Assembly: GCA_964016885.1 (NCBI GenBank)
Contig: OZ024741.1
Location: forward strand, 307,768,001 to 307,832,000
DNA: 64,000 bases
Reading direction: 5' to 3'
Origin: Eledone cirrhosa
Taxonomy: Eukaryota
In this document: positions 15,198-60,655 of the stretch, one piece after another
Layout: every line of letters starts with the position of its first letter
Numbering within the stretch: the stretch's first letter is position 1
Translations under genes and position numbers: made by a program
Notes under the pieces: model-generated
Told to the model about the DNA's origin: nothing
What the model saw: only the letters and a program-made list of their open reading frames with translations
The model's database searches: none

Positions 15198-18100
15198 TAC
15201 ACAAACACACAACACAAACACACAACACAAACACACAACACAAATTCACAACACAAACTCACAACACAAACATACAACACAATCACACAACACAAACACA
15301 CAACACAATCAAACATCACAATCACACAACACAAACTCACAACACAAACTCACAACACAAACATACAACACAAACACACAACACAAAGACACAACACAAA
15401 CACGCAACATAAACCCACAACATTAACACACAACACAAACACACAACACAAACACACGACACAATGACACAATACAAACACACAACGCAAACACACAACA
15501 CAAACACACAACACAATCACACAAACACACAACACAATCACACAAACACACAACACAATCACACAAGACACCAACAACACAAACACACAAAACAATCACA
15601 CAACAAACACACAACACAAACACACAACAAAAACATACAACACAAACTCACAATCACACAAACACACATACAACACAAACACACAACACAAACATACAAC
15701 ACAAACTCACAACACAAACTCACAACACAACACAATCACATAAAAAACACAAACATACAACACAAACACACAACACAATCACACAACACAATCCCACAAC
15801 ACAGACACACAACACAAACACACAACACAATCACACAACACAAACACACAACACAAACTCACAACACAAACACACAACGCAAACATAAAACACAAACGCA
15901 CAAAACAAACACACAACACACAACACAATCACATAAAAAACACACAACACAAACACACAACACAAACTCACAACACAAACATACAACACAATCACACAAC
16001 ACAAACACACAACACAATCAAACATCACAATCACACAACACAAACTCACAACACAAACTCACAACACAAACATACAACACAAACACACAACACAAAGACA
16101 CAACACAAACACGCAACATAAACCCACAACATTAACACACAACACAAACACACAACACAAACACACGACACAATGACACAATACAAACACACAACGCAAA
16201 CACACAACACAAACACACAACACAATCACACAAACACACAACACAATCACACAAACACACAACACAATCACACAAGACACCAACAACACAAATACACAAA
16301 ACAATCACACAACAAACACACAACACAAACACACAACAAAAACATACAACACAAACTCACAATCACACAAACACACATACAACACAAACACACAACACAA
16401 ACATACAACACAAACTCACAACACAAACTCACAACACAACACAATCACATAAAAAACACAAACATACAACACAAACACACAACACAATCACACAACACAA
16501 TCCCACAACACAGACACACAACACAAACACACAACACAATCACACAACACAAACACACAACACAAACTCACAACACAAACACACAACGCAAACATAAAAC
16601 ACAAACGCACAAAACAAACACACAACACACAACACAATCACATAAAAAACACACAACACAAACACACAACACAAACTCACAACACAAACTCACAACACGA
16701 ACACACAACACAAACACACAACACAAACACACAACACAATCACACAACACAAACACCCAACACAAACAAACAACACAAACACACAACACAAACACACAAC
16801 ACAATCACACAACACAAACACCCAACACAAACACACAACACAAACACACAACACAAACGCGCAACACAATCACATAACACAATCACACAACACAAACACA
16901 CAACAAAAACTCACAAGACAAACACACAAGACAAACACACAACACAATCACACAAAAATACACACAACACAAACACACAACACAATCACCCAACACAAAC
17001 ACACAACACAAACACACAACACAAACACACAACACAATCACACAACACAAACACAAACTCACAACACAAACACACAACACAAACATAAAACACAAACTAA
17101 CAACACATACACACAACACACAAGACAATCACATAAAAAAACAGACACCACAAACTCACAACACAAACTCACAAAACAATGACACAACACAAACACACAA
17201 CACAGACATAAAACACAATCACACAACAGAAACACACAACACAATCACACAATAATACACACAACACAAACACACAACACAAACGCACAATACAAACACA
17301 CAACAGAAACACACAACACAAAATCACAACACAAACTCACAACACAAACATACAACACAATCACACAACACAAACACACAACACAATCACACATCACAAT
17401 CACACAACACAAACTCACAACACAAACTCACAACACAAACATACAACACAAACACACAACACAAACACACAACACAAATACACAACACAAACACACAACA
17501 CAAACACGCAACATAAACACACAACATTAACACACAACACAAACACACAATACAATCAAACAACACAAACACACAACACAAACACACAACACAATGACAC
17601 AATACAAACACACAACGCAAACACACAACACAAACACAACACAATCACACAAACACACAACACAATCACACAAAACACACACAACACAAACACACAAAAC
17701 AATCACACAACAAACACACAACACAAACACACAACACAAACACACAACACAAACACACAACACAAACACACAACACAAACTCACAATCACACAAGAACAC
17801 ACAACACAAACACACAACACAAACATACAACAAAAACTCAGAACACAAACACACAACTCACAACACAATCACATAAAAAATACACACAACATAAACGCAC
17901 TACACACAACAAAAACTCACAAAACAAACACACAACACAAACACACAACACAATCAAACAACACAAACATACAACACAATCACACAACACAAACACACAA
18001 CACAATCAAACAACACAAACACACAACAGAAACTCACAATACAAACACACAACACAATCAAACAACACAAACATACAACACAATCACACAACACAAACAC

Positions 18101-21100
18101 ACAACACAATCAAACAACACAAACACACAACAGAAACTCACAACACAATCACACAACACAATCACACAACACAAACACACAACACAAACATACAACACAA
18201 TCACACAACACAAATACACAACACAAACTCACAACACAAACTCACAACACGAACACACAACACAAACACACAACACAAACACACAACACAATCACACAAC
18301 ACAAACACCCAACACAAACAAACAACACAAACACACAACACAAACACACAACACAATCACACAACACAAACACCCAACACAAACACACAACACAAACACA
18401 CAACACAAACGCGCAACACAATCACACAACACAATCACACAACACAAACACACAACAAAAACTCACAAGACAAACACACAACACAAACAAACAACACAAT
18501 CACACATCACAATCACACAACACAAAGTCACAAGACAAACACACAAGACAAACACACAACACAATCACACAAAAATACACACAACACAAACACACAACAC
18601 AATCACCCAACACAAACACACAACACAAACACACAACACAAACACACAACACAATCACACAACACAAACACTAACTCACAACACAAACACACAACACAAA
18701 CATAAAACACAAACTAACAACACAAACTAACAACACAAACACACAACACACAAGACAATCACATAAAAAAACAGACAACACAAACTCACAACACAAACTC
18801 ACAAAACAATGACACAACACAAACACACAACACAGACATAAAACACAATCACACAACACAAACACACAACACAATCACACAAAAATACACACAACGCAAA
18901 CACACAACACAAACGCACAACACAAACACACAACAGAAACACACAACACAAACTCACAACACAAACTCACAACACAAACATACAACACAATCACACAACA
19001 TAAACACACAACACAATCACACATCACAATCACACAACACAAACTCACAACACAAACTCACAACACAAACACACAACACAAACACACAACACAAACACAC
19101 AACACAAACACACAACACAAACACGCAACATAAACACACAACATTAACACACAACACAAACACACAACACAATCACACAAAACACACACAACACAAACAC
19201 ACAAAACAATCACACAACAAACACACAACACAAACACACAACACAAACACACAACACAAACTCACAATCACACAAAAACACATACAACACAAACACACAA
19301 CACAAACATACAACTCACAACACAATCACATAAAAAACACACACAACATAAACGCACTACACACAACAAAAACTCACAAAACAAACACACAACACAGACA
19401 CACAACACAAACACACAACACAATCAAACAACACAAACATACAACACAATCACACAACACAAACACACAACACAATCAAACAACACAAACACACAACAGA
19501 AACTCACAACACAATCACACAACACAATCACACAACACAAACACACAACACAAACACACAACTCAATCACACAATACAAACACACAACACAAACACACAA
19601 CACAAACACACAACACAATCAAACAACACAAACATACAACACAATCACACAACACAAACACACAACACAATCAAACAACACAAACACACAACAGAAACTC
19701 ACAACACAATCACAAAACACAATCACACAACACAAACACACAACACAAACACACAACACAATCACACAACACAAACACACAACACACACTCACAACACAA
19801 ACATACAACACAAACATAAAACACAAACTCACAAAACAAAAACACAACACACAACACAATCACATAAAAAACACACAACACAAACACACAACACAAACTC
19901 ACAACACAAACTCACAACACAAACACACAACACAAACACACAACACAAACACACAACACAATTACACAACACAAACACCCAACACAAACATACAACACAA
20001 ACACACAACACAAACACACAGCACAATCACACAACACAAACACCCAACACAAACACACAACACAAACACACAACACAATCACACAACTCAAAGTCACAAG
20101 ACAAACACACGACACAAACACACAACACAACCACACAACACAAACACACAACACAATCACACAAAAATACACACAACACAAACACACAACACAATGACAC
20201 AACACAAACACACAACGCAAACACACAACACAAACACACAACACAAACACACAAACACACAACACAATCACACAGAAACACACACAACACAAACACAAGC
20301 ACACAACACAATCACCCAACACAAACACACAACACAAACACACAACACAAACACACAACACAATGACACAATACAAACACACAACGCAAACACACAACAC
20401 AAACACACAACACAATCACACAAAACACACACAACACAAACACACAAAACAATCACACAACAAACACACAACACAAACACACAACACAAACACACAACAC
20501 AAACTCACAATCACATAAAAACACATACAACACAAACACACAACACAAACATACAACAAAAACTCACAACACTAACACACAACTCACAACACAATCACAT
20601 AAAAAAACACACACAACATAAACTCACTACACACAACAAAAACTCACAACACAAACACACAACACAAACATAGAATACAAACACACAACACAAACACACA
20701 AACACACAACACAATCACACAAACACACAATACAATCACACAATACAAACACACAACACAATCACACAAAAATACACACAACACAAACACACAACACAAA
20801 CACACAACACAATGACACAACACAAACACACAACGCAAACACACAACACAAACACACAACACAATCACACAAACACACAACACAATCACACAAACACACA
20901 ACACAATCACACAAACACACAACACAATCACACAATACAAACACACAACACAATCACACAGAAACACACACAACACAAACACACAACACAATGACACAAC
21001 ACAATCACACAACACAATCACCCAACACAAACACACAACACAAACACACAACACAAACACACAACACAATCACACAACACAAACACACAACACAAACACA

Positions 21101-24100
21101 CAACACAATCACACAAACACACAACACAATCACACAATACAAACACACAACACAATCACACAGAAACACACACAACACAAACACACAACACAATGACACA
21201 ACACAATCACACAACACAATCACCCAACACAAACACACAACACAATCACACAACACAAACACACAACGCAATCACACAACACAAACACCCAACACAAACA
21301 CACAACACAATCACACAACACAAACACCCAACACAAACAAACAACACAAACACACAACACAAACACACAACACAATCACACAACACAAACACCCAACACA
21401 AACACACAACACAAACACACAACACAAACGCGCAACACAATCACACAACACAATCACACAACACAAACACACAACAAAAACTCACAAGACAAACACACAA
21501 CACAAACAAACAACACAATCACACATCACAATCACACAACACAAAGTCACAAGACAAACACACAAGACAAACACACAACACAATCACACAAAAATACACA
21601 CAACACAAACACACAACACAATCACCCAACACAAACACACAACACAAACACACAACACAAACACACAACACAATCACACAACACAAACACTAACTCACAA
21701 CACAAACACACAACACAAACATAAAACACAAACTAACAACACAAACTAACAACACAAACACACAACACACAAGACAATCACATAAAAAAACAGACAACAC
21801 AAACTCACAACACAAACTCACAAAACAATGACACAACACAAACACACAACACAGACATAAAACACAATCACACAACACAAACACACAACACAATCACACA
21901 AAAATACACACAACGCAAACACACAACACAAACGCACAACACAAACACACAACAGAAACACACAACACAAACTCACAACACAAACTCACAACACAAACAT
22001 ACAACACAATCACACAACATAAACACACAACACAATCACACATCACAATCACACAACACAAACTCACAACACAAACTCACAACACAAACACACAACACAA
22101 ACACACAACACAAACACACAACACAAACACACAACACAAACACGCAACATAAACACACAACATTAACACACAACACAAACACACAACACAATCACACAAA
22201 ACACACACAACACAAACACACAAAACAATCACACAACAAACACACAACACAAACACACAACACAAACACACAACACAAACTCACAATCACACAAAAACAC
22301 ATACAACACAAACACACAACACAAACATACAACTCACAACACAATCACATAAAAAACACACACAACATAAACGCACTACACACAACAAAAACTCACAAAA
22401 CAAACACACAACACAGACACACAACACAAACACACAACACAATCAAACAACACAAACATACAACACAATCACACAACACAAACACACAACACAATCAAAC
22501 AACACAAACACACAACAGAAACTCACAACACAATCACACAACACAATCACACAACACAAACACACAACACAAACACACAACTCAATCACACAATACAAAC
22601 ACACAACACAAACACACAACACAAACACACAACACAATCAAACAACACAAACATACAACACAATCACACAACACAAACACACAACACAATCAAACAACAC
22701 AAACACACAACAGAAACTCACAACACAATCACAAAACACAATCACACAACACAAACACACAACACAAACACACAACACAATCACACAACACAAACACACA
22801 ACACACACTCACAACACAAACATACAACACAAACATAAAACACAAACTCACAAAACAAAAACACAACACACAACACAATCACATAAAAAACACACAACAC
22901 AAACACACAACACAAACTCACAACACAAACTCACAACACAAACACACAACACAAACACACAACACAAACACACAACACAATTACACAACACAAACACCCA
23001 ACACAAACATACAACACAAACACACAACACAAACACACAGCACAATCACACAACACAAACACCCAACACAAACACACAACACAAACACACAACACAATCA
23101 CACAACTCAAAGTCACAAGACAAACACACGACACAAACACACAACACAACCACACAACACAAACACACAACACAATCACACAAAAATACACACAACACAA
23201 ACACACAACACAATGACACAACACAAACACACAACGCAAACACACAACACAAACACACAACACAAACACACAAACACACAACACAATCACACAGAAACAC
23301 ACACAACACAAACACAAGCACACAACACAATCACCCAACACAAACACACAACACAAACACACAACACAAACACACAACACAATGACACAATACAAACACA
23401 CAACGCAAACACACAACACAAACACACAACACAATCACACAAAACACACACAACACAAACACACAAAACAATCACACAACAAACACACAACACAAACACA
23501 CAACACAAACACACAACACAAACTCACAATCACATAAAAACACATACAACACAAACACACAACACAAACATACAACAAAAACTCACAACACTAACACACA
23601 ACTCACAACACAATCACATAAAAAAACACACACAACATAAACTCACTACACACAACAAAAACTCACAACACAAACACACAACACAAACATAGAATACAAA
23701 CACACAACACAAACACACAAACACACAACACAATCACACAAACACACAATACAATCACACAATACAAACACACAACACAATCACACAAAAATACACACAA
23801 CACAAACACACAACACAAACACACAACACAATGACACAACACAAACACACAACGCAAACACACAACACAAACACACAACACAATCACACAAACACACAAC
23901 ACAATCACACAAACACACAACACAATCACACAAACACACAACACAATCACACAATACAAACACACAACACAATCACACAGAAACACACACAACACAAACA
24001 CACAACACAATGACACAACACAATCACACAACACAATCACCCAACACAAACACACAACACAAACACACAACACAAACACACAACACAATCACACAACACA

Positions 24101-27100
24101 AACACACAACACAAACACACAACACAATCACACAAACACACAACACAATCACACAATACAAACACACAACACAATCACACAGAAACACACACAACACAAA
24201 CACACAACACAATGACACAACACAATCACACAACACAATCACCCAACACAAACACACAACACAATCACACAACACAAACACACAACGCAATCACACAACA
24301 CAAACACCCAACACAAACACACAACACAAACACACAACACAAACACACAAAACAATCACACAACACAAACACCCAACACAAACACACAACACAAACACAC
24401 AACACAAACACACAACACAAACACACAACACAAACATAAAACACAAACTCACAAAACAATCACACAGCACACAACACAATCACATAAAAAACACACAACA
24501 CAAACACACAACACAAACTCACAACACAAACTCACAACACAAACACACAACACAAACACACAACACAGACACACAACACAATCACACAACACAAACACAC
24601 AACACAAACACACAAGCACAATCACACAACACAAACACCCAACACAAACACACAACACAAACACACAACACAAACGCGCAACACAATCACACAACACAAT
24701 CACACAACACAAACACACAACAAAAACTCACAACACAATCACACAAACACACAACACAATCACACAATACAAACACACAACACAAACACAACACAATCAG
24801 ACAAACACACAACACAATCACACAAAACACACACAACACAAACACACAAAAGAATCACACAACAAACACACAACACAAACACACAACACAAACACACAAC
24901 ACAAACACACAACACAAACACACAACACAAACTCACAATCACACAAAAACACACAACACAAACACACAACACAAACATACAACAAAAACTCAGAACACAA
25001 ACACACAACTCACAACACAATCACATAAAAAATACACACAACATAAACGCACTACACACAACAAAAACTCACAAAACAAACACACAACACAAACACACAA
25101 CACAATCAAACAACACAAACATACAACACAATCACACAACACAAACACACAACACAATCAAACAACACAAACACACAACAGAAACTCACAATACAAACAC
25201 ACAACACAATCAAACAACACAAACATACAACACAATCACACAACACAAACACACAACACAATCAAACAACACAAACACACAACAGAAACTCACAACACAA
25301 TCACACAACACAATCACACAACACAAACACACAACACAAACATACAACACAATCACACAACACAAACACACAACACAAACTCACAACACAAACTCACAAC
25401 ACAAACTCACAACACGAACAAACAACACAAACACACAACACAAACACACAACACAATCACACAACACAATCACACAACACAAACACACAACACAAACACA
25501 CAACACAAACGCGCAACACAATCACACAACACAATCACACAACACAAACACACAACAAAAACTCACAAGACAAACACACAACACAAACAAACAACACAAT
25601 CACACATCACAATCACACAACACAAAGTCACAAGACAAACACACAAGACAAACACACAACACAATCACACAAAAATACACACAACACAAACACACAACAC
25701 AATCACCCAACACAAACACACAACACAAACACACAACACAAACACACAACACAATCACACAACACAAACACAAACTCACAACACAAACACACAACACAAA
25801 CATAAAACACAAACTAACAACACAAACTAACAACACAAACACACAACACACAAGACAATCACATAAAAAAACAGACAACACAAACTCACAACACAAACTC
25901 ACAAAACAATGACACAACACAAACACACAACACAGACATAAAACACAATCACACAACACAAACACACAACACAATCACACAAAAATACACACAACACAAA
26001 CACACAACACAAACGCACAACACAAACACACAACAGAAACACACAACACAAACTCACAACACAAACTCACAACACAAACATACAACACAATCACACAACA
26101 TAAACACACAACACAATCACACATCACAATCACACAACACAAACTCACAACACAAACTCACAACACAAACACACAACACAAACACACAACACAAACACAC
26201 AACACAAACACACAACACAAACACGCAACATAAACACACAACATTAACACACAACACAAACACACAACACAATCACACAAAACACACACAACACAAACAC
26301 ACAAAACAATCACACAACAAACACACAACACAAACACACAACACAAACACACAACACAAACTCACAATCACACAAAAACACATACAACACAAACACACAA
26401 CACAAACATACAACTCACAACACAATCACATAAAAAACACACACAACATAAACGCACTACACACAACAAAAACTCACAAAACAAACACACAACACAGACA
26501 CACAACACAAACACACAACACAATCAAACAACACAAACATACAACACAATCACACAACACAAACACACAACACAATCAAACAACACAAACACACAACAGA
26601 AACTCACAACACAATCACACAACACAATCACACAACACAAACACACAACACAAACACACAACTCAATCACACAACACAAACACACAACACAAACACACAA
26701 CACAAACACACAACACAATCAAACAACACAAACATACAACACAATCACACAACACAAACACACAACACAATCAAACAACACAAACACACAACAGAAACTC
26801 ACAACACAATCACACAACACAATCACACAACACAAACACACAACACAAACACACAACACAATCACACAACACAAACACACAACACAAACTCACAACACAA
26901 ACATACAACACAAACATAAAACACAAACTCACAAAACAAAAACACAACACACAACACAATCACATAAAAAACACACAACACAAACACACAACACAAACTC
27001 ACAACACAAACTCACAACACAAACACACAACACAAACACACAACACAAACACACAACACAATTACACAACACAAACACCCAACACAAACACACAACACAA

Positions 27101-30100
27101 ACACACAACACAAACACACAGCACAATCACACAACACAAACACCCAACACAAACACACAACACAAACACACAACACAATCACACAACTCAAAGTCACAAG
27201 ACAAACACACGACACAAACACACAACACAACCACACAACACAAACACACAACACAATCACACAAAAATACACACAACACAAACACACAACACAATGACAC
27301 AACACAAACATACAACGCAAACACACAACACAAACACACAACACAAACACACAAACACACAACACAATCACACAGAAACACACACAACACAAACACAAAC
27401 ACACAACACAATCACCCAACACAAACACACAACACAAACACACAACACAAACACACAACACAATGACACAATACAAACACAAAACGCAAACACACAACAC
27501 AAACACACAACACAATCACACAAAACACACACAACACAAACACACAAAACAATCACACAACAAACACACAACACAAACACACAACACAAACACACAACAC
27601 AAACTCACAATCACATAAAAGCACATACAACACAAACACACAACACAAACATACAACAAAAACTCACAACACTAACACACAACTCACAACACAATCACAT
27701 AAAAAAACACACACAACATAAACGCACTACACACAACAAAAACTCACAACACAAACACACAACACAAACATAGAATACAAACACACAACACAAACACACA
27801 AACACACAACACAATCACACAAACACACAATACAATCACACAATACAAACACACAACACAATCACACAAAAATACACACAACACAAACACACAACACAAT
27901 GACACAACACAAACACACAACGCAAACACACAACACAAACACACAACACAATCACACAAACACACAACACAATCACACAAACACACAACACAATCACACA
28001 AACACACAACACAATCACACAATACAAACACACAACACAATCACACAGAAACACACACAACACAAACACACAACACAATGACACAACACAATCACACAAC
28101 ACAATCACCCAACACAAACACACAACACAAACACACAACACAAACACACAACACAAACACACAACACAAACACACAACACAAACACACAACCCAATCACA
28201 CAAACACACAACACAATCACACAAACACACAACACAATCACACAAACACACAACACAATCACACAATACAAACACACAACACAATCACACAGAAACACAC
28301 ACAACACAAACACACAACACAATGACACAACACAATGACACAACACAATCACCCAACACAAACACACAACACAATCACACAACACAAACACACAACACAA
28401 TCACACAACACAAACACCCAACACAAACACACAACACAAACACACAACACAAACACACAAAACAATCACACAACACAAACACCCAACACAAACACACAAC
28501 ACAAACACACAACACAAACACACAACACAAACACACAACACAAACATAAAACACAAACTCACAAAACAATCACACAGCACACAACACAATCACATAAAAA
28601 ACACACAACACAAACACACAACACAAACTCACAACACAAACTCACAACACAAACACACAACACAAACACACAACACAGACACACAACACAATCACACAAC
28701 ACAAACACACAACTCAAACACAGAACACAAACACACAACACAAACACACAAGCACAATCACACAACACAAACACCCAACACAAACACACAACACAAACAC
28801 ACAACACAAACGCGCAACACAATCACACAACACAATCACACAACACAAACACACAACAAAAACTCACAACACAATCACACAAACACACAACACAATCACA
28901 CAATACAAACACACAACACAATCACACAGAAACACACACAACACAAACACAAACACACAACACAATCACCCAACACAAGCACACAACACAAACTCACAAC
29001 ACAAACTCACAACACAGTGACACAACACAAACACACAACACAAACTCACAACACAATGACACAACACAAACACACAACACAAACATAAAACACAATCACA
29101 CAACACAAACACACAACACAATCACACAACACAAACACACAACACAAACACACAACACAATCACACAACACAAACACCCAACACAAACACACAACACAAA
29201 CACACAACACAAACGCGCAACACAATCACACAACACAATCACACAACACAAACACAAAAGACAAACTCACAAGACAAACACACAACAGAAACAAACAACA
29301 CAATCACACATCACAATCACACAACACAAAGTCACAAGACAAACACACAAGACAAACACACAACACACAAGACAATCACATAAAAAAACAGACAACACAA
29401 ACTCACAACACAAACTCACAAAACAATGACACAACACAAACACACAACACAAACATAAAACACAATCACACAACAGAAACAGACAACACAATCACACAAA
29501 AATACACACAACACAAACACAAACGCACAACACAAACACACAATAGAAACACACAACACAAACTCACAACACAAACTCACAACACAAACATACAACACAA
29601 TCACACAACACAAACACACAACACAATCACACATCACAATCACACAACACAAGCTCACAACACAAACACACAACACAAACATACAACACAAACACACAAC
29701 ACAAACACACAACACAAACACACAACACAAACACACAACACAAATACGCAACATAAACACACAACATTAACACACAATACAAACACACAACACAAACACA
29801 CAACACAAACACACAACACAATGACACAATACAAACACACAACGCAAACACACAACACAAACACACAAACACACAACACAATCACACAAATCACACACAA
29901 TACAAACACACAAAACAATCACACAACAAACACACAACACAAACACACAACACAAACACACAACACAAACTACAATCACACAAAAACACATATAACACAA
30001 ACACACAACACAAACATACAACACAAACTCACAACACAAACACACAACTCGCAACACAAACATACAACACAAACACACAACACAATAACACAACACAATC

Positions 30101-31050
30101 ACACAACACAGACAGACAACACAAACACACAACACAATCACAGAACACAAACACACAACACAATCACGCAAACACACAACGCAATCACAGAAACGCACAA
30201 CACAATCACACAATACAAACACACAACACAATCACACAGAAACACACACAACACAAACACAAACACACAACACAATCACCCAACACAAACACACAACACA
30301 AATACACAACACAAACACACAACACAATCACACAACACAAACATAAAACACAAACTAACAACACAAACACACAACACACAAGACAATCACATAAAAAAAC
30401 AGACAACACAATCTCACAACATAAACTCACAAAACAATGACACAACACAAACACACAACACAGACATAAAACACAATCACACAACAGAAACACACAACAC
30501 AAACTCACAACACAAACTCACAACACAAACATACAACACAAACTCTCAACACAAACTCACAACACAATCACACAAAAATACACACAACACAAACACACAA
30601 CACAAACGCACAACACAAACACACAACAGAAACACACAACACAAACTCACAACACAAACTCACAACACAAACATACAACACAAACACACAACACAATCAC
30701 ACAACAGAATCACAGAACACAAACTCACAAAAAAACACACAACCCAAACACACAACACAAACACACAACACAAACTCACAAAAAAACACACAACACAAAC
30801 ACACAACACAAACACACAACACAATCACACAACAGAAACACACAACACAATCACACAAAAAAACACACAACACAAACACACAACACAAACTCACCAAACA
30901 AACATACAACACAAACACAAACACACAATACAAACACACAACACAATCACACAACAGAAACACAACACAATCATACAAAAAACACACAACACAAACACAC
31001 AACACAAACTCACAAAAAAAAAACAATGTAAAACATACCACACACTAAAT
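15198..31050. repeat. ~15.8-kb satellite, 13-bp monomer AACACAAACACAC, with higher-order duplications
   Basis: Monomer variants AACACAATCACAC, AACACAAACTCAC, AACACAAACATAC. Identical or near-identical ORF-track translations recur at offsets of 709 (15350/16059), 3019 (19058/22077, 20194/23213) and 4081 (22077/26158, 23213/27294). Confidence 0.95.
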
Positions 31051-31660
31051 AGGCGCACATTCATACACACACATACACACACATACATATAAACACACAA
31101 GTAGAAACACACACATACAAATACACAAATACAAACATACAACTAAAAACCCATGCATACACAGACACACATACAAATACACACGTACAAATAGACACAT
31201 ACAAACACACACTTACACAGACATCCCAACACACACACATCCAAACAAACACATACACAGACACACATACAAACACACACATACACATATGCACACATAC
31301 ACAAACACACACGTACACACACATTCAAACACATGTACAAATCCCCACAAACACACATACAAACACACACACGTACAAACACACACATACACAGACATAC
31401 ACATTCAAACTTTCCTCCTGTCACTCAGTCTATTACTTTCTCCTACACCGTTTATTTCTTTTTCCACATCTCTCTGTCTATCACTTTCTACCCTCTCTCT
31501 TTATCTCTTGAACGCTTTATCCACCACTTCTCCTATCACTCAATCTGACTATTTCTTCCTCTTTCTCTATCCATTACTTTCTCACCTCTCTATCTTTTCC
31601 TCCTTTCTCTATCCACCATTTTCACCCAGGTTCTCACTCACTCTTTATCTCTCCCCCTCT

Positions 31661-58335: not shown

Positions 58336-59013
58336 TTGCAAAAATAAATAATTAAGGAAATTCAACATATTTGGCCTATTGTCAATTTAGTATATATATA
58401 TATACATATATGGTATGGGATAACTAGTTATCGTTATAGGTAATCCAGTTAGAGGGTATGAGTACCCTGTGTCGTGGATAGTTTTAACGTACGGCTTTGT
58501 TTGACTCAACAAGCTGTTTCCATAGTTAGGCCTCAAGTTCGCGAGAATTCCTATGCAGGTTATACTTGCAGTAATAATAGTGAAAGATTGAAGAGTAACA
58601 TGGTCGGCTGTACACATATTACTCTTCAATCTTTCCCTATATATGTCAGACGTCTGTCTTTTCTCTCGCCCACACAATCTTGAACTTAAGTTCTCTCATC
58701 GTGTGGTCTTGGATTTTCTTACCTTAAGTTGCTCGCACATTGCTCGATTTGTTTGTTTTTTTCGTTGTTTGTTCGCTGTTTTCTCTTTTCTTCCCTTTTG
58801 TTTTCCTTCCCTCCTCCGTTTTCCCAATAACTTATCCAGTTATTGACGCTCTGGGTGGTAGCTATATTGTCTTTAAAGCCTAGAAATATCCGAGACCCAA
58901 GTAGACAACTGATGAGGAACCCCCCTCCCATACTTGCTTTTTTCTTATTCCCACTCCATTTTAAGCTACCTTAAATAGCAACTACACAGCCATTTCTATT
59001 CTCCATATATATA

Positions 59014-59897
59014 CGAGGTGTGTCAGAAAAGTTCCAGGACTGATGTCACAAAAGATTTATTTCAAACCCAAACTTCACACGAAGAGTTTTCTCCTTCAAA
59101 GTAATCCCCCTGGAGCATGTAACTGTAATCTTAGCTCTCTGCAGCGATCAAACTTTTTTCTTCATAATTTCATATACATGTCTCCTGTTTCAGGTCGTCA
59201 AGCAATGAGCACAGAGCAACTAACAAACTTGAAGTTTCTGGTACGGTTGGGGAAAACTCCGTCAGAAGCACTGGGATTGCTGCAGCAAGTGTATGGAGAT
59301 GAGACGATGTCACGCTCACGTGTTTTTGAGTGGTGCAAGATGACCCGGGAGCAGAAGGCCCTCAACAACCAGGACTGAGGTCAACGTTGAGCTCGTCAGG
59401 CAGATGGTGCGTAGCGATCGTCGGCTGACTGTTTGACTGATAGCAAATGAGCTGGGCATGAATCTGGACAGCGTCTGGAAGATTCTCACTGAAGATTTGG
59501 ACATGCGGAAAGTCTGAGCGAAGATGGTGCCAAAACTGCTGAACGATGACCAGAAAGGTCGACGCATGCAAGTGTGCCAGGACATCCTCGAGCCTCTTGA
59601 AACCGAACCAGACTTGCTAGGGACAGTCATCACCGGTGATGAGTCATGGATCTTCGAGTACGACCCGGAGGGGACCCGTTTTGAAGACGTGGACGACATA
59701 AAAAAGGCCCTGACGACGGAACTGCGGAGGATCCCAGAAGAATCCTTCCAAGAGTGCATGCAAGCGTGGCAGAACAGGATGGAAAAGTGCATTAGATTCC
59801 AGGTGGATTACTTTGAAGGAGAAAACGCTTGGTTTGAAATTTGAGTTTGAAATAAATCTTTTGTGACATCAGTCCTGGAACCTTTCTGACACACCTC

Positions 59898-59898
<1 letters not shown>
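59014..59898 (+). mobile_element. Internally deleted mariner transposon (885 bp) with a TA target-site duplication
   Basis: TA|CGAGGTGTGTCAGAAAAGTTCCAGGACTGATGTCACAAAAGATTTATTTCAAAC and its near-perfect inverse ending CACACCTCG|TA. Transposase MSTEQLTNLKFLVRLGKTPSEA...MVPKLL...ITGDESWIFEYDPE is joined directly to GTRFEDVDDIK...DYFEG, so most of the catalytic domain is lost. Confidence 0.95.
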
Positions 59899-59940
<42 letters not shown>

Positions 59941-59946
<6 letters not shown>

Positions 59947-60492
59947 TTTCAAAATATTAATAAATATAGACATTCATGTGATCAAATATATTTTATTATA
60001 TATATTTCAGAGGTACTGTGCTGTTTCCTCAGTACGTCCTCATCAGATAAAATAAATTGATGTCTGACACACCTGTGCTGATGGTTCAAATCAGTGACTC
60101 CCAAGACTGGAATTGAACCATCAGATAAAATAAATTGATGTCTGACATACCTGTGCTGATGGTTCAAATCAGTGACTGCCAAGACTGGAATTGAACCATC
60201 AGATAAAATAAATTGATGTCTGACACACCTGTGCTGATGGTTCAAATCAGTGACTCCCAAGACTGGAATTGAACCATCAGATAAAATAAATTGATGTCTG
60301 ACATACCTGTGCTGATGGTTCAAATCAGTGACTGCCAAGACTGGAATTGAACCATCAGATAAAATAAATTGATGTCTGACATACCTCAACTGAGGACGTA
60401 CTGAGGAAACAGCACAGTACCTCTGAAATATATATAATAAAATATATTTGATCACATGAATGTCTATATTTATTAATATTTTGAAATAATAT
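59941..60492. repeat. Fold-back cassette: 102-bp perfect inverted arms around 4.4 tandem 78-bp hairpin units
   Basis: 59941-60042 is the reverse complement of 60391-60492. Units start at 60041, 60119, 60197, 60275 and 60353, alternating between two variants. Confidence 0.92.
59990..60053 (-). ncRNA. Type I minimal hammerhead ribozyme motif
   Basis: Minus strand: AUUUUAU-CUGAUGA-GGACGUACUG-loop-CAGUACCUCU-GAAA-UAUAUA-UA-AUAAAAU; 7-bp stem I. Confidence 0.85.
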
Positions 60493-60566
60493 TAATAACT
60501 CCAGAAAACTTATCTATTGTAAAACTATATTCATTGATTAATCAATGAACCTTGTTTAACTTTCGG

Positions 60567-60655
<89 letters not shown>

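Follow-up and report, generated by a model that had tools for sequence, protein, structure and literature searches.

A four-unit junction array within a head-to-head pair of Penelope-like end repeats in Eledone cirrhosa

Features of the locus

The window, by which we mean the whole 64,000-nucleotide stretch of Eledone cirrhosa DNA that was analysed (assembly GCA_964016885.1, contig OZ024741.1, positions 307,768,001 to 307,832,000, forward strand), contains an insert of about 630 bp that spans approximately 59940 to 60568 and is flanked on both sides by (TA)n tracts. Its parts are listed below in window coordinates; "reference" is the natural pLTR copy L093:3501-3975, to which all pLTR positions refer.

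59899..59940, no strand: left half of the (TA)n target, from repeat analysis
59939..60042, minus strand: left arm, a pLTR copy (reference positions 380-277) ending at the family's short 3' end; putative first cDNA
59988..60055, minus strand: complete type I hammerhead motif with an 8-bp stem I, CUGAUGA from 60046, a long stem II, GAAA and a palindromic stem III
60041..60352, plus strand: four 78-bp units in the order A-B-A-B, from a parse against the pLTR reference
60078..60124, plus strand: junction hairpin of unit 1 (12+5 bp), recurring each 78 bp, from folding
60353..60391, plus strand: terminal partial unit, undeleted antisense pLTR 278-240, from the parse against the reference
60391..60494, plus strand: right arm, sense pLTR from position 277, its hammerhead cut off within the core
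60492..60568, plus strand: tail confined to the right arm, made of pLTR 379-475 less 18 bp and ending at the family's long 3' end
60568..60652, no strand: right half of the (TA)n target, from repeat analysis

All 104 positions of the two arms (59939-60042 and 60391-60494) are complementary, and the insert pairs a short-end arm on the left with a long-end arm on the right; it carries the pLTR end repeat only, without a coding body, and the locus is likely to have no function. A sequence-only reading of this DNA had described two perfect inverted arms of 102 bp and had ended the cassette at 60492; the arms are indeed perfect, at a length of 104 bp, and the insert runs on to 60568, with its tail on the right arm only. 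The left side of the cassette adjoins, in the same (TA)n tract, an internally deleted mariner-type relic (59005-59907) with 110-bp inverted repeats (94%) and a weak Mos1 HTH match (E 1e-4), and positions 15199-31311 of the window are a 16-kb satellite with a 13-bp unit, about 1235 copies and extreme strand skew.

The parent element

A genome search with the arm gave 54 matches (40 of 998 candidates scored), the best of them 98-99% identical. A walk upstream from the repeat found RT (YRDD) and GIY-YIG (YIG) frames at loci L092, L093, L096, L099 and L127, and in L092 and L093 the order is inverted end repeat, coding body, second end repeat, which is the focal layout on a larger scale. The arm is the hammerhead-bearing pLTR of a young retroelement of Penelope-like type. 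It lies in (TA)n, the sequence that flanks the focal insert and most sampled loci. The frame is broken in every copy read of the arm's own subfamily; a sister subfamily, whose DNA is 74-75% identical to the parent body, has a 750-amino-acid frame, for which 189 of 8000 scored candidates are homologues at E<=1e-20. Pfam gave only a weak RVT_1 match (E 0.016) in one of five parent fragments and nothing relevant on the two long parent frames.

The Hydra clade of C-terminal-endonuclease Penelope-like elements was defined in PMC8557442 and includes Hydra-1_Obim of Octopus bimaculoides; the clade has RT followed by GIY-YIG, DKT, CxCX5C, CxxC/CxH around a conserved E and N, (TA)n targets and an end-repeat hammerhead. 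The present family reads DKT instead of DKG (as KSDKTNN) in L126, L133 and L135, all of the sister subfamily, the arm's own being unread at that point. The CxCX5C linker is present in L096, L099, L127 and L129-L135; there is no CCHH, and the GIY-YIG core has a single cysteine, with CLH at the end; CNLC was read by eye from L093, where L126 and L133 have YNLC. From its sequence the parent appears to match the Hydra clade in DKT, CxCX5C, a terminal CxH, (TA)n targets and the hammerhead, and its protein is collinear with that of Hydra-1_Obim when compared by eye with the supplement text. It is a different family, with another hammerhead sequence, an asparagine-rich linker and an N-terminal RWR for RWK, the last seen in the one N-terminus read (L133). 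Hydra-like elements are very abundant in the genome. A 124-amino-acid RT fragment drew 23625 first-look candidates, and most of the 150 that were scored are 77-93% identical.

Layout of the family inserts

The sample of family loci was picked by likeness to the arm, the unit or a 23-mer of the pLTR, and 148 loci reduce to 140 distinct inserts. Among these, 72 are head-to-head, 68 are single-armed and none is tail-to-tail; given how the loci were picked, 72 of 140 is not a genome-wide rate, and the head-to-head layout is the usual form among this family's sampled inserts. The 72 head-to-head inserts comprise 56 that pair a short end (378) with a long end (475), one that is long-long, none that is short-short and 15 with some other end, where the classifier also placed the focal right end on account of the 18-bp deletion there. 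In published accounts, a tail confined to one end marks Penelope-like elements (PMC8557442, PMC3846280). The Penelope protein has been reported in vitro to cut and extend both strands, with two reverse-transcription start sites defining the tail (PMC11167929), and the short and long ends of the family inserts match those two sites.

An array at the junction like the focal one is present in one of the 140 inserts, by a count whose tandem-repeat filter missed a 12-bp x5 array in L072. That array (L072:1418-1477) lies inside an arm, where a 12-bp piece (reference 387-398) is repeated five times. The focal events have milder counterparts in a 79-bp tandem duplication (x2) at the junction in L063:1401-1645 and a local inversion of reference 242-272 at the junction in L164. 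Two loci 70.21 and 71.01 Mb along C2 (L154 and L155) share an identical head-to-head junction, either by segmental duplication or because the cassette moved as a unit.

The hammerhead motif

The minus-strand hammerhead, which the sequence-only reading had called complete, is so at 59988-60055 and is supported by covariation; its predicted cut is 3' of 59997, equivalent to reference position 322. A hammerhead descriptor yielded 136 variants, and in an alignment of 13 distinct ones chosen from them the core does not vary, 96.6% of cells are paired and stem III is palindromic throughout, although the descriptor itself favours the core and stem I. It does not favour stem II, where five of the six pairs show compensatory change and the covariation score of the 13 variants was reached in none of 500 shuffles. 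Rfam gave no match in the whole window at gathering score, and up to E 10 the region 59900-60560 gave 13 chance-level matches, none of them a hammerhead.

The right arm does hold a truncated hammerhead, as had been noted, but its CUGAGGA is not a retained core: it consists of an antisense C joined to the sense TGAGGAC at the junction, and since the right arm begins inside the core, this CUGAGGA is an accidental product of the junction. The first stem II pair of the focal hammerhead is G-U and its monomer stem III has a predicted cost of 3.5 kcal/mol; a costly monomer stem III is expected of dimer-type hammerhead motifs (PMC4209133), and the focal motif is the known pLTR hammerhead, which likely works as a dimer. 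In the folded cassette the hammerhead stems have a probability of 0.0, and read-through RNA is predicted to bury the intact hammerhead in the 104-bp arm duplex. The L093 copy has a change in stem II, so that the fold of a short RNA from L093 is no guide here. Further hammerhead subfamilies with other stem II sequences lie near family copies in the same tracts (L069:2602-2674, L090:2210-2282, L022:1779-1846, L117:2962-3026 and L166:700-767).

The 78-bp array

Tandem-repeat analysis finds an array of period 78, with 4.4 copies and 97% matches, at 60041-60386. Units 1 and 3 are exactly alike, as are units 2 and 4, and A and B differ at two sites (60070 and 60100), which bears out the 4.4 alternating A/B units of the sequence-only reading. 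Each unit is made of antisense pLTR 278-209 (minus 5 bp and 10 bp), one extra G and sense pLTR 209-236, and the strand change in each falls at the pLTR's own 6-bp inverted repeat CATCAG/CTGATG. The terminal partial unit is without the 5-bp deletion; its first 34 bp are the start of every unit, and the array sits between 34-bp direct repeats.

The unit is chimeric, with pLTR pieces of antisense and sense orientation fused across the junction, and is unique to the focal locus. A search of the 3.0-Gb genome with the unit dimer gave 77 matches (40 of 818 candidates scored), of which the best other locus is 79% identical over its length, and the strand-switch junction, allowing one mismatch or fewer, has four matches genome-wide, all of them within the focal array. 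The A/B alternation fits a 1-2-4 doubling, and not rolling-circle copying of a small RNA. CUGANGA occurs on neither strand of the array apart from the left arm's own core, and no unit has a cleavage site.

Every unit has its own hairpin of 12+5 bp, as the earlier reading stated; as RNA it is predicted at -22.1 kcal/mol (z -5.4, equalled by none of 200 shuffles), and as DNA its z is -5.5. That reading also foresaw a transcript forming long double-stranded RNA with nested pre-miRNA-like hairpins. A long duplex is predicted in read-through RNA; a 47-nt hairpin with 17 bp, on the other hand, is below pre-miRNA size, and the best miRNA matches of the region 59900-60560 have E values of 3-9, so the unit hairpin finds no support as a miRNA precursor.

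Unit A is exact over 103 nt, both odd junctions included, in one short-read contig (run X1), while among the contigs listed for runs X1-X3 none spans the array and none is B-specific; the three runs come from one sample, possibly the source of the assembly, and their contigs drop variants and have a depth unsuitable for copy number. Among the sequencing runs listed for the sequence none is of RNA.

A fixed start at base 209

The exact 23-mer at reference 209-231 has 503 copies, and the base before it is the templated C in 216, G in 148 and A or T in 139. Among the first 30 loci per class, the native upstream sequence is absent from 59 of 60 non-C loci, compared with 4 of 30 C loci. With 287 of the 503 copies in the non-C classes, where that upstream sequence is missing, more than half of all copies begin at base 209. 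A TATA box stands 32 nt upstream of this base, which itself falls within TCACT; a promoter-like pair of this kind was noted in rotifer pLTRs (PMC3846280). Ribozyme cleavage was rejected as the origin of the sharp 5' end; the cut is at reference 322 and the start at 209.

The G occurs before base 209 in 148 of the 287 non-C copies and in roughly three in ten solo copies (scaled from 7-9/30 and 17-18/30, the assignment to solo or head-to-head varying slightly by script, with 9 versus 7 solos among 30 G loci); for comparison, the share of G is 5% in the flanks of solo copies and 13% on the antisense strand. At head-to-head loci the partner arm itself templates many of the extra Gs too, and three of seven solo G cases end in CAG and may be snap-back. 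The extra G is present in all four focal units. Untemplated G in L1 and SVA has been attributed to cap copying (PMC3287187), and the extra G of this family is likely a copied cap as well. A literature search, which most subscription papers lay outside, returned no report of a cap-like G or a fixed start in Penelope short copies.

Of 60 loci that start at 209 (two of which are one insert), 35 are head-to-head. In 22 of these 35 the arm starting at 209 ends short and its partner has the tail, seven without any overlap; because the partner holds the tail that is missing from the other arm, it is not a fold-back copy of that arm. Over 14 inserts, arm divergence is 2.2% within an insert and 7.8% between inserts, and the own partner is the closest arm in only nine of the 14. 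Antisense self-priming was proposed for head-to-head Penelope copies in PMC3846280. The arms described here speak for two cDNAs that were each presumably primed on a short sense RNA bearing a cap, rather than for fold-back or antisense self-priming.

Origin of the cassette

The cassette is probably a head-to-head pair of short pLTRs of a Hydra-motif Penelope-like element in (TA)n, whose one-off junction chimera was doubled twice as DNA after insertion. We infer this from the parent, the layout, the two fixed 3' ends and the make-up and uniqueness of the unit, all of which were observed directly, and the steps might have been as follows. The TATA/initiator promoter in the pLTR would make a short capped RNA from reference base 209; the element endonuclease would cut both (TA)n strands, and each end would prime a cDNA, one from the short start site and one from the long. 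One cDNA would then switch strand at the 6-bp inverted repeat and invert 39 bp, which would cut the hammerhead and leave a hairpin between two direct repeats of 34 bp that stand 78 bp apart, and the two cDNAs would be joined with small deletions at the joint. Slippage or unequal exchange between the 34-bp repeats would give one unit and then two; two substitutions would mark one of them, and doubling of the pair would give A-B-A-B. Against this history stand two features of the array. The terminal partial unit is without the 5-bp deletion, which means that at least that switch was made while an intact template was present. One 78-bp unit has two substitutions beside no differences in the 104-bp arms; substitutions next to flawless arms are a hint of error-prone synthesis at insertion and sit better with it than with slow ageing of DNA.

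It is conceivable, and we think rather unlikely, that the whole set of four units arose during integration, the element RT or a repair polymerase of the polymerase theta type having slipped or switched template repeatedly as the cDNAs were joined. The perfect arms beside a unit with two substitutions and two deletions speak for such an origin, as do short duplications and inversions at other junctions (L063, with 79 bp x2, L074, L161 and L164). However, the same deletions and extra G four times over, with A identical to A and B to B, need block copying of an existing junction, twice, and only one insert in 140 carries such a junction array. It is improbable that the insertion is real but its unit number was inflated or mixed by the assembler, for instance if A and B were two alleles. 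No listed contig spans the array or is specific to B, and structures of this kind trouble assemblies (PMC8557442); on the other side, a short-read contig reproduces unit A exactly, both odd junctions included, an absent B proves nothing when contigs drop variants, and the insert accounts for only 630 bp of a 416-Mb contig.

The sequence-only reading had favoured rolling-circle or iterative reverse transcription of a small structured RNA. Its reverse-transcription origin holds in so far as the source is a retroelement and strands were switched at the junction, although the identity of the pLTR and the routine fold-back layout had been missed. Rolling-circle copying of a small circular RNA into a retrozyme-like tandem is, in contrast, very improbable: tandem units do lie beside a type I hammerhead, and retrozymes are proposed to derive from pLTRs (10.64898/2026.07.22.740005), but with no CUGANGA or cleavage site in any unit it already fails its defining test, both strands are mixed in the units, the units do not begin or end at the cut site 59997 and there is no second locus. 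It seems scarcely credible that the cassette is a DNA transposon of fold-back or MITE type, with its arms as terminal inverted repeats of 104 bp and its array as an internal satellite. Perfect inverted arms and TA flanks would suit such an element; asymmetric ends with a tail on one side, junctions that differ at each locus, 68 of 140 inserts that are single-armed, and an arm joined to RT and GIY-YIG coding sequence would not. The reading that we prefer remains a head-to-head pLTR pair with later doubling of its junction.

A wider reading, for which we would put the chances as about even, takes the family as a natural record of Penelope integration. A SINE-like short capped RNA would be mobilised alone, two (TA)n ends would prime from two fixed sites on one sense RNA, and copying of the cap would add a base from which the joint is seeded. 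In its boldest extension, (TA)n would restore a TATA box 30 nt above promoterless copies, so that short copies could spread themselves.

Relation to known systems

Inverted pLTR insertion units with an optional tail are described in PMC3846280, PMC8557442 and PMC11167929, and the inserts studied here share with them the head-to-head arms, the junction palindrome, the one-end tail and, in the pLTR, TATA with a TCACT initiator-like motif. The differences are a tail of about 97 bp here, against 30-40 bp there, and, in the focal insert, arms that are both below 300 bp and a junction expanded to a four-unit array. The minimal hammerheads of metazoan Penelope-like elements (PMC4209133) are likewise type I, with a long stem II and a palindromic stem III, and are reported as pairs 100-700 bp apart on opposite strands; here, in contrast, one member of the pair is incomplete, stem I has 8 bp and the first stem II pair is G-U.

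The tandem repeat derived from a hammerhead-bearing pLTR recalls non-LTR retrozymes (PMC7229834; 10.64898/2026.07.22.740005). Retrozyme units are head-to-tail with a whole ribozyme each, and the latter source requires two or more units in uninterrupted tandem, every one of them with a complete hammerhead; the focal units hold none and mix strands. A non-LTR retrozyme was rejected for the cassette, array units having no CUGANGA on either strand. The cassette is best read as the scar of an insertion, marked by a rare stutter, and not as a new kind of RNA element.

As one scar among hundreds the cassette itself is of little weight, and patterns of a hammerhead with tandem repeats need a check for pLTRs before they are labelled as retrozymes. 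Greater weight belongs to the family. Mechanistic work on how head-to-head Penelope copies form is called for in PMC8557442, and PMC11167929 showed two start sites and two-strand extension in vitro and stopped short of the later steps. The genome offers a way to test the integration mechanism through hundreds of young copies that have a single sharp 5' start and two fixed 3' ends and whose arms cannot be mutual copies; if true, the short-capped-RNA reading would settle between sense priming and antisense self-priming for head-to-head copies. The parent linker is asparagine-rich (L093:1580-2120), which recalls the N-rich inserts of rotifer Penelopes (PMC3846280), and the linker of L100 contains a long expanded 6-bp repeat (L100:4180-4600).
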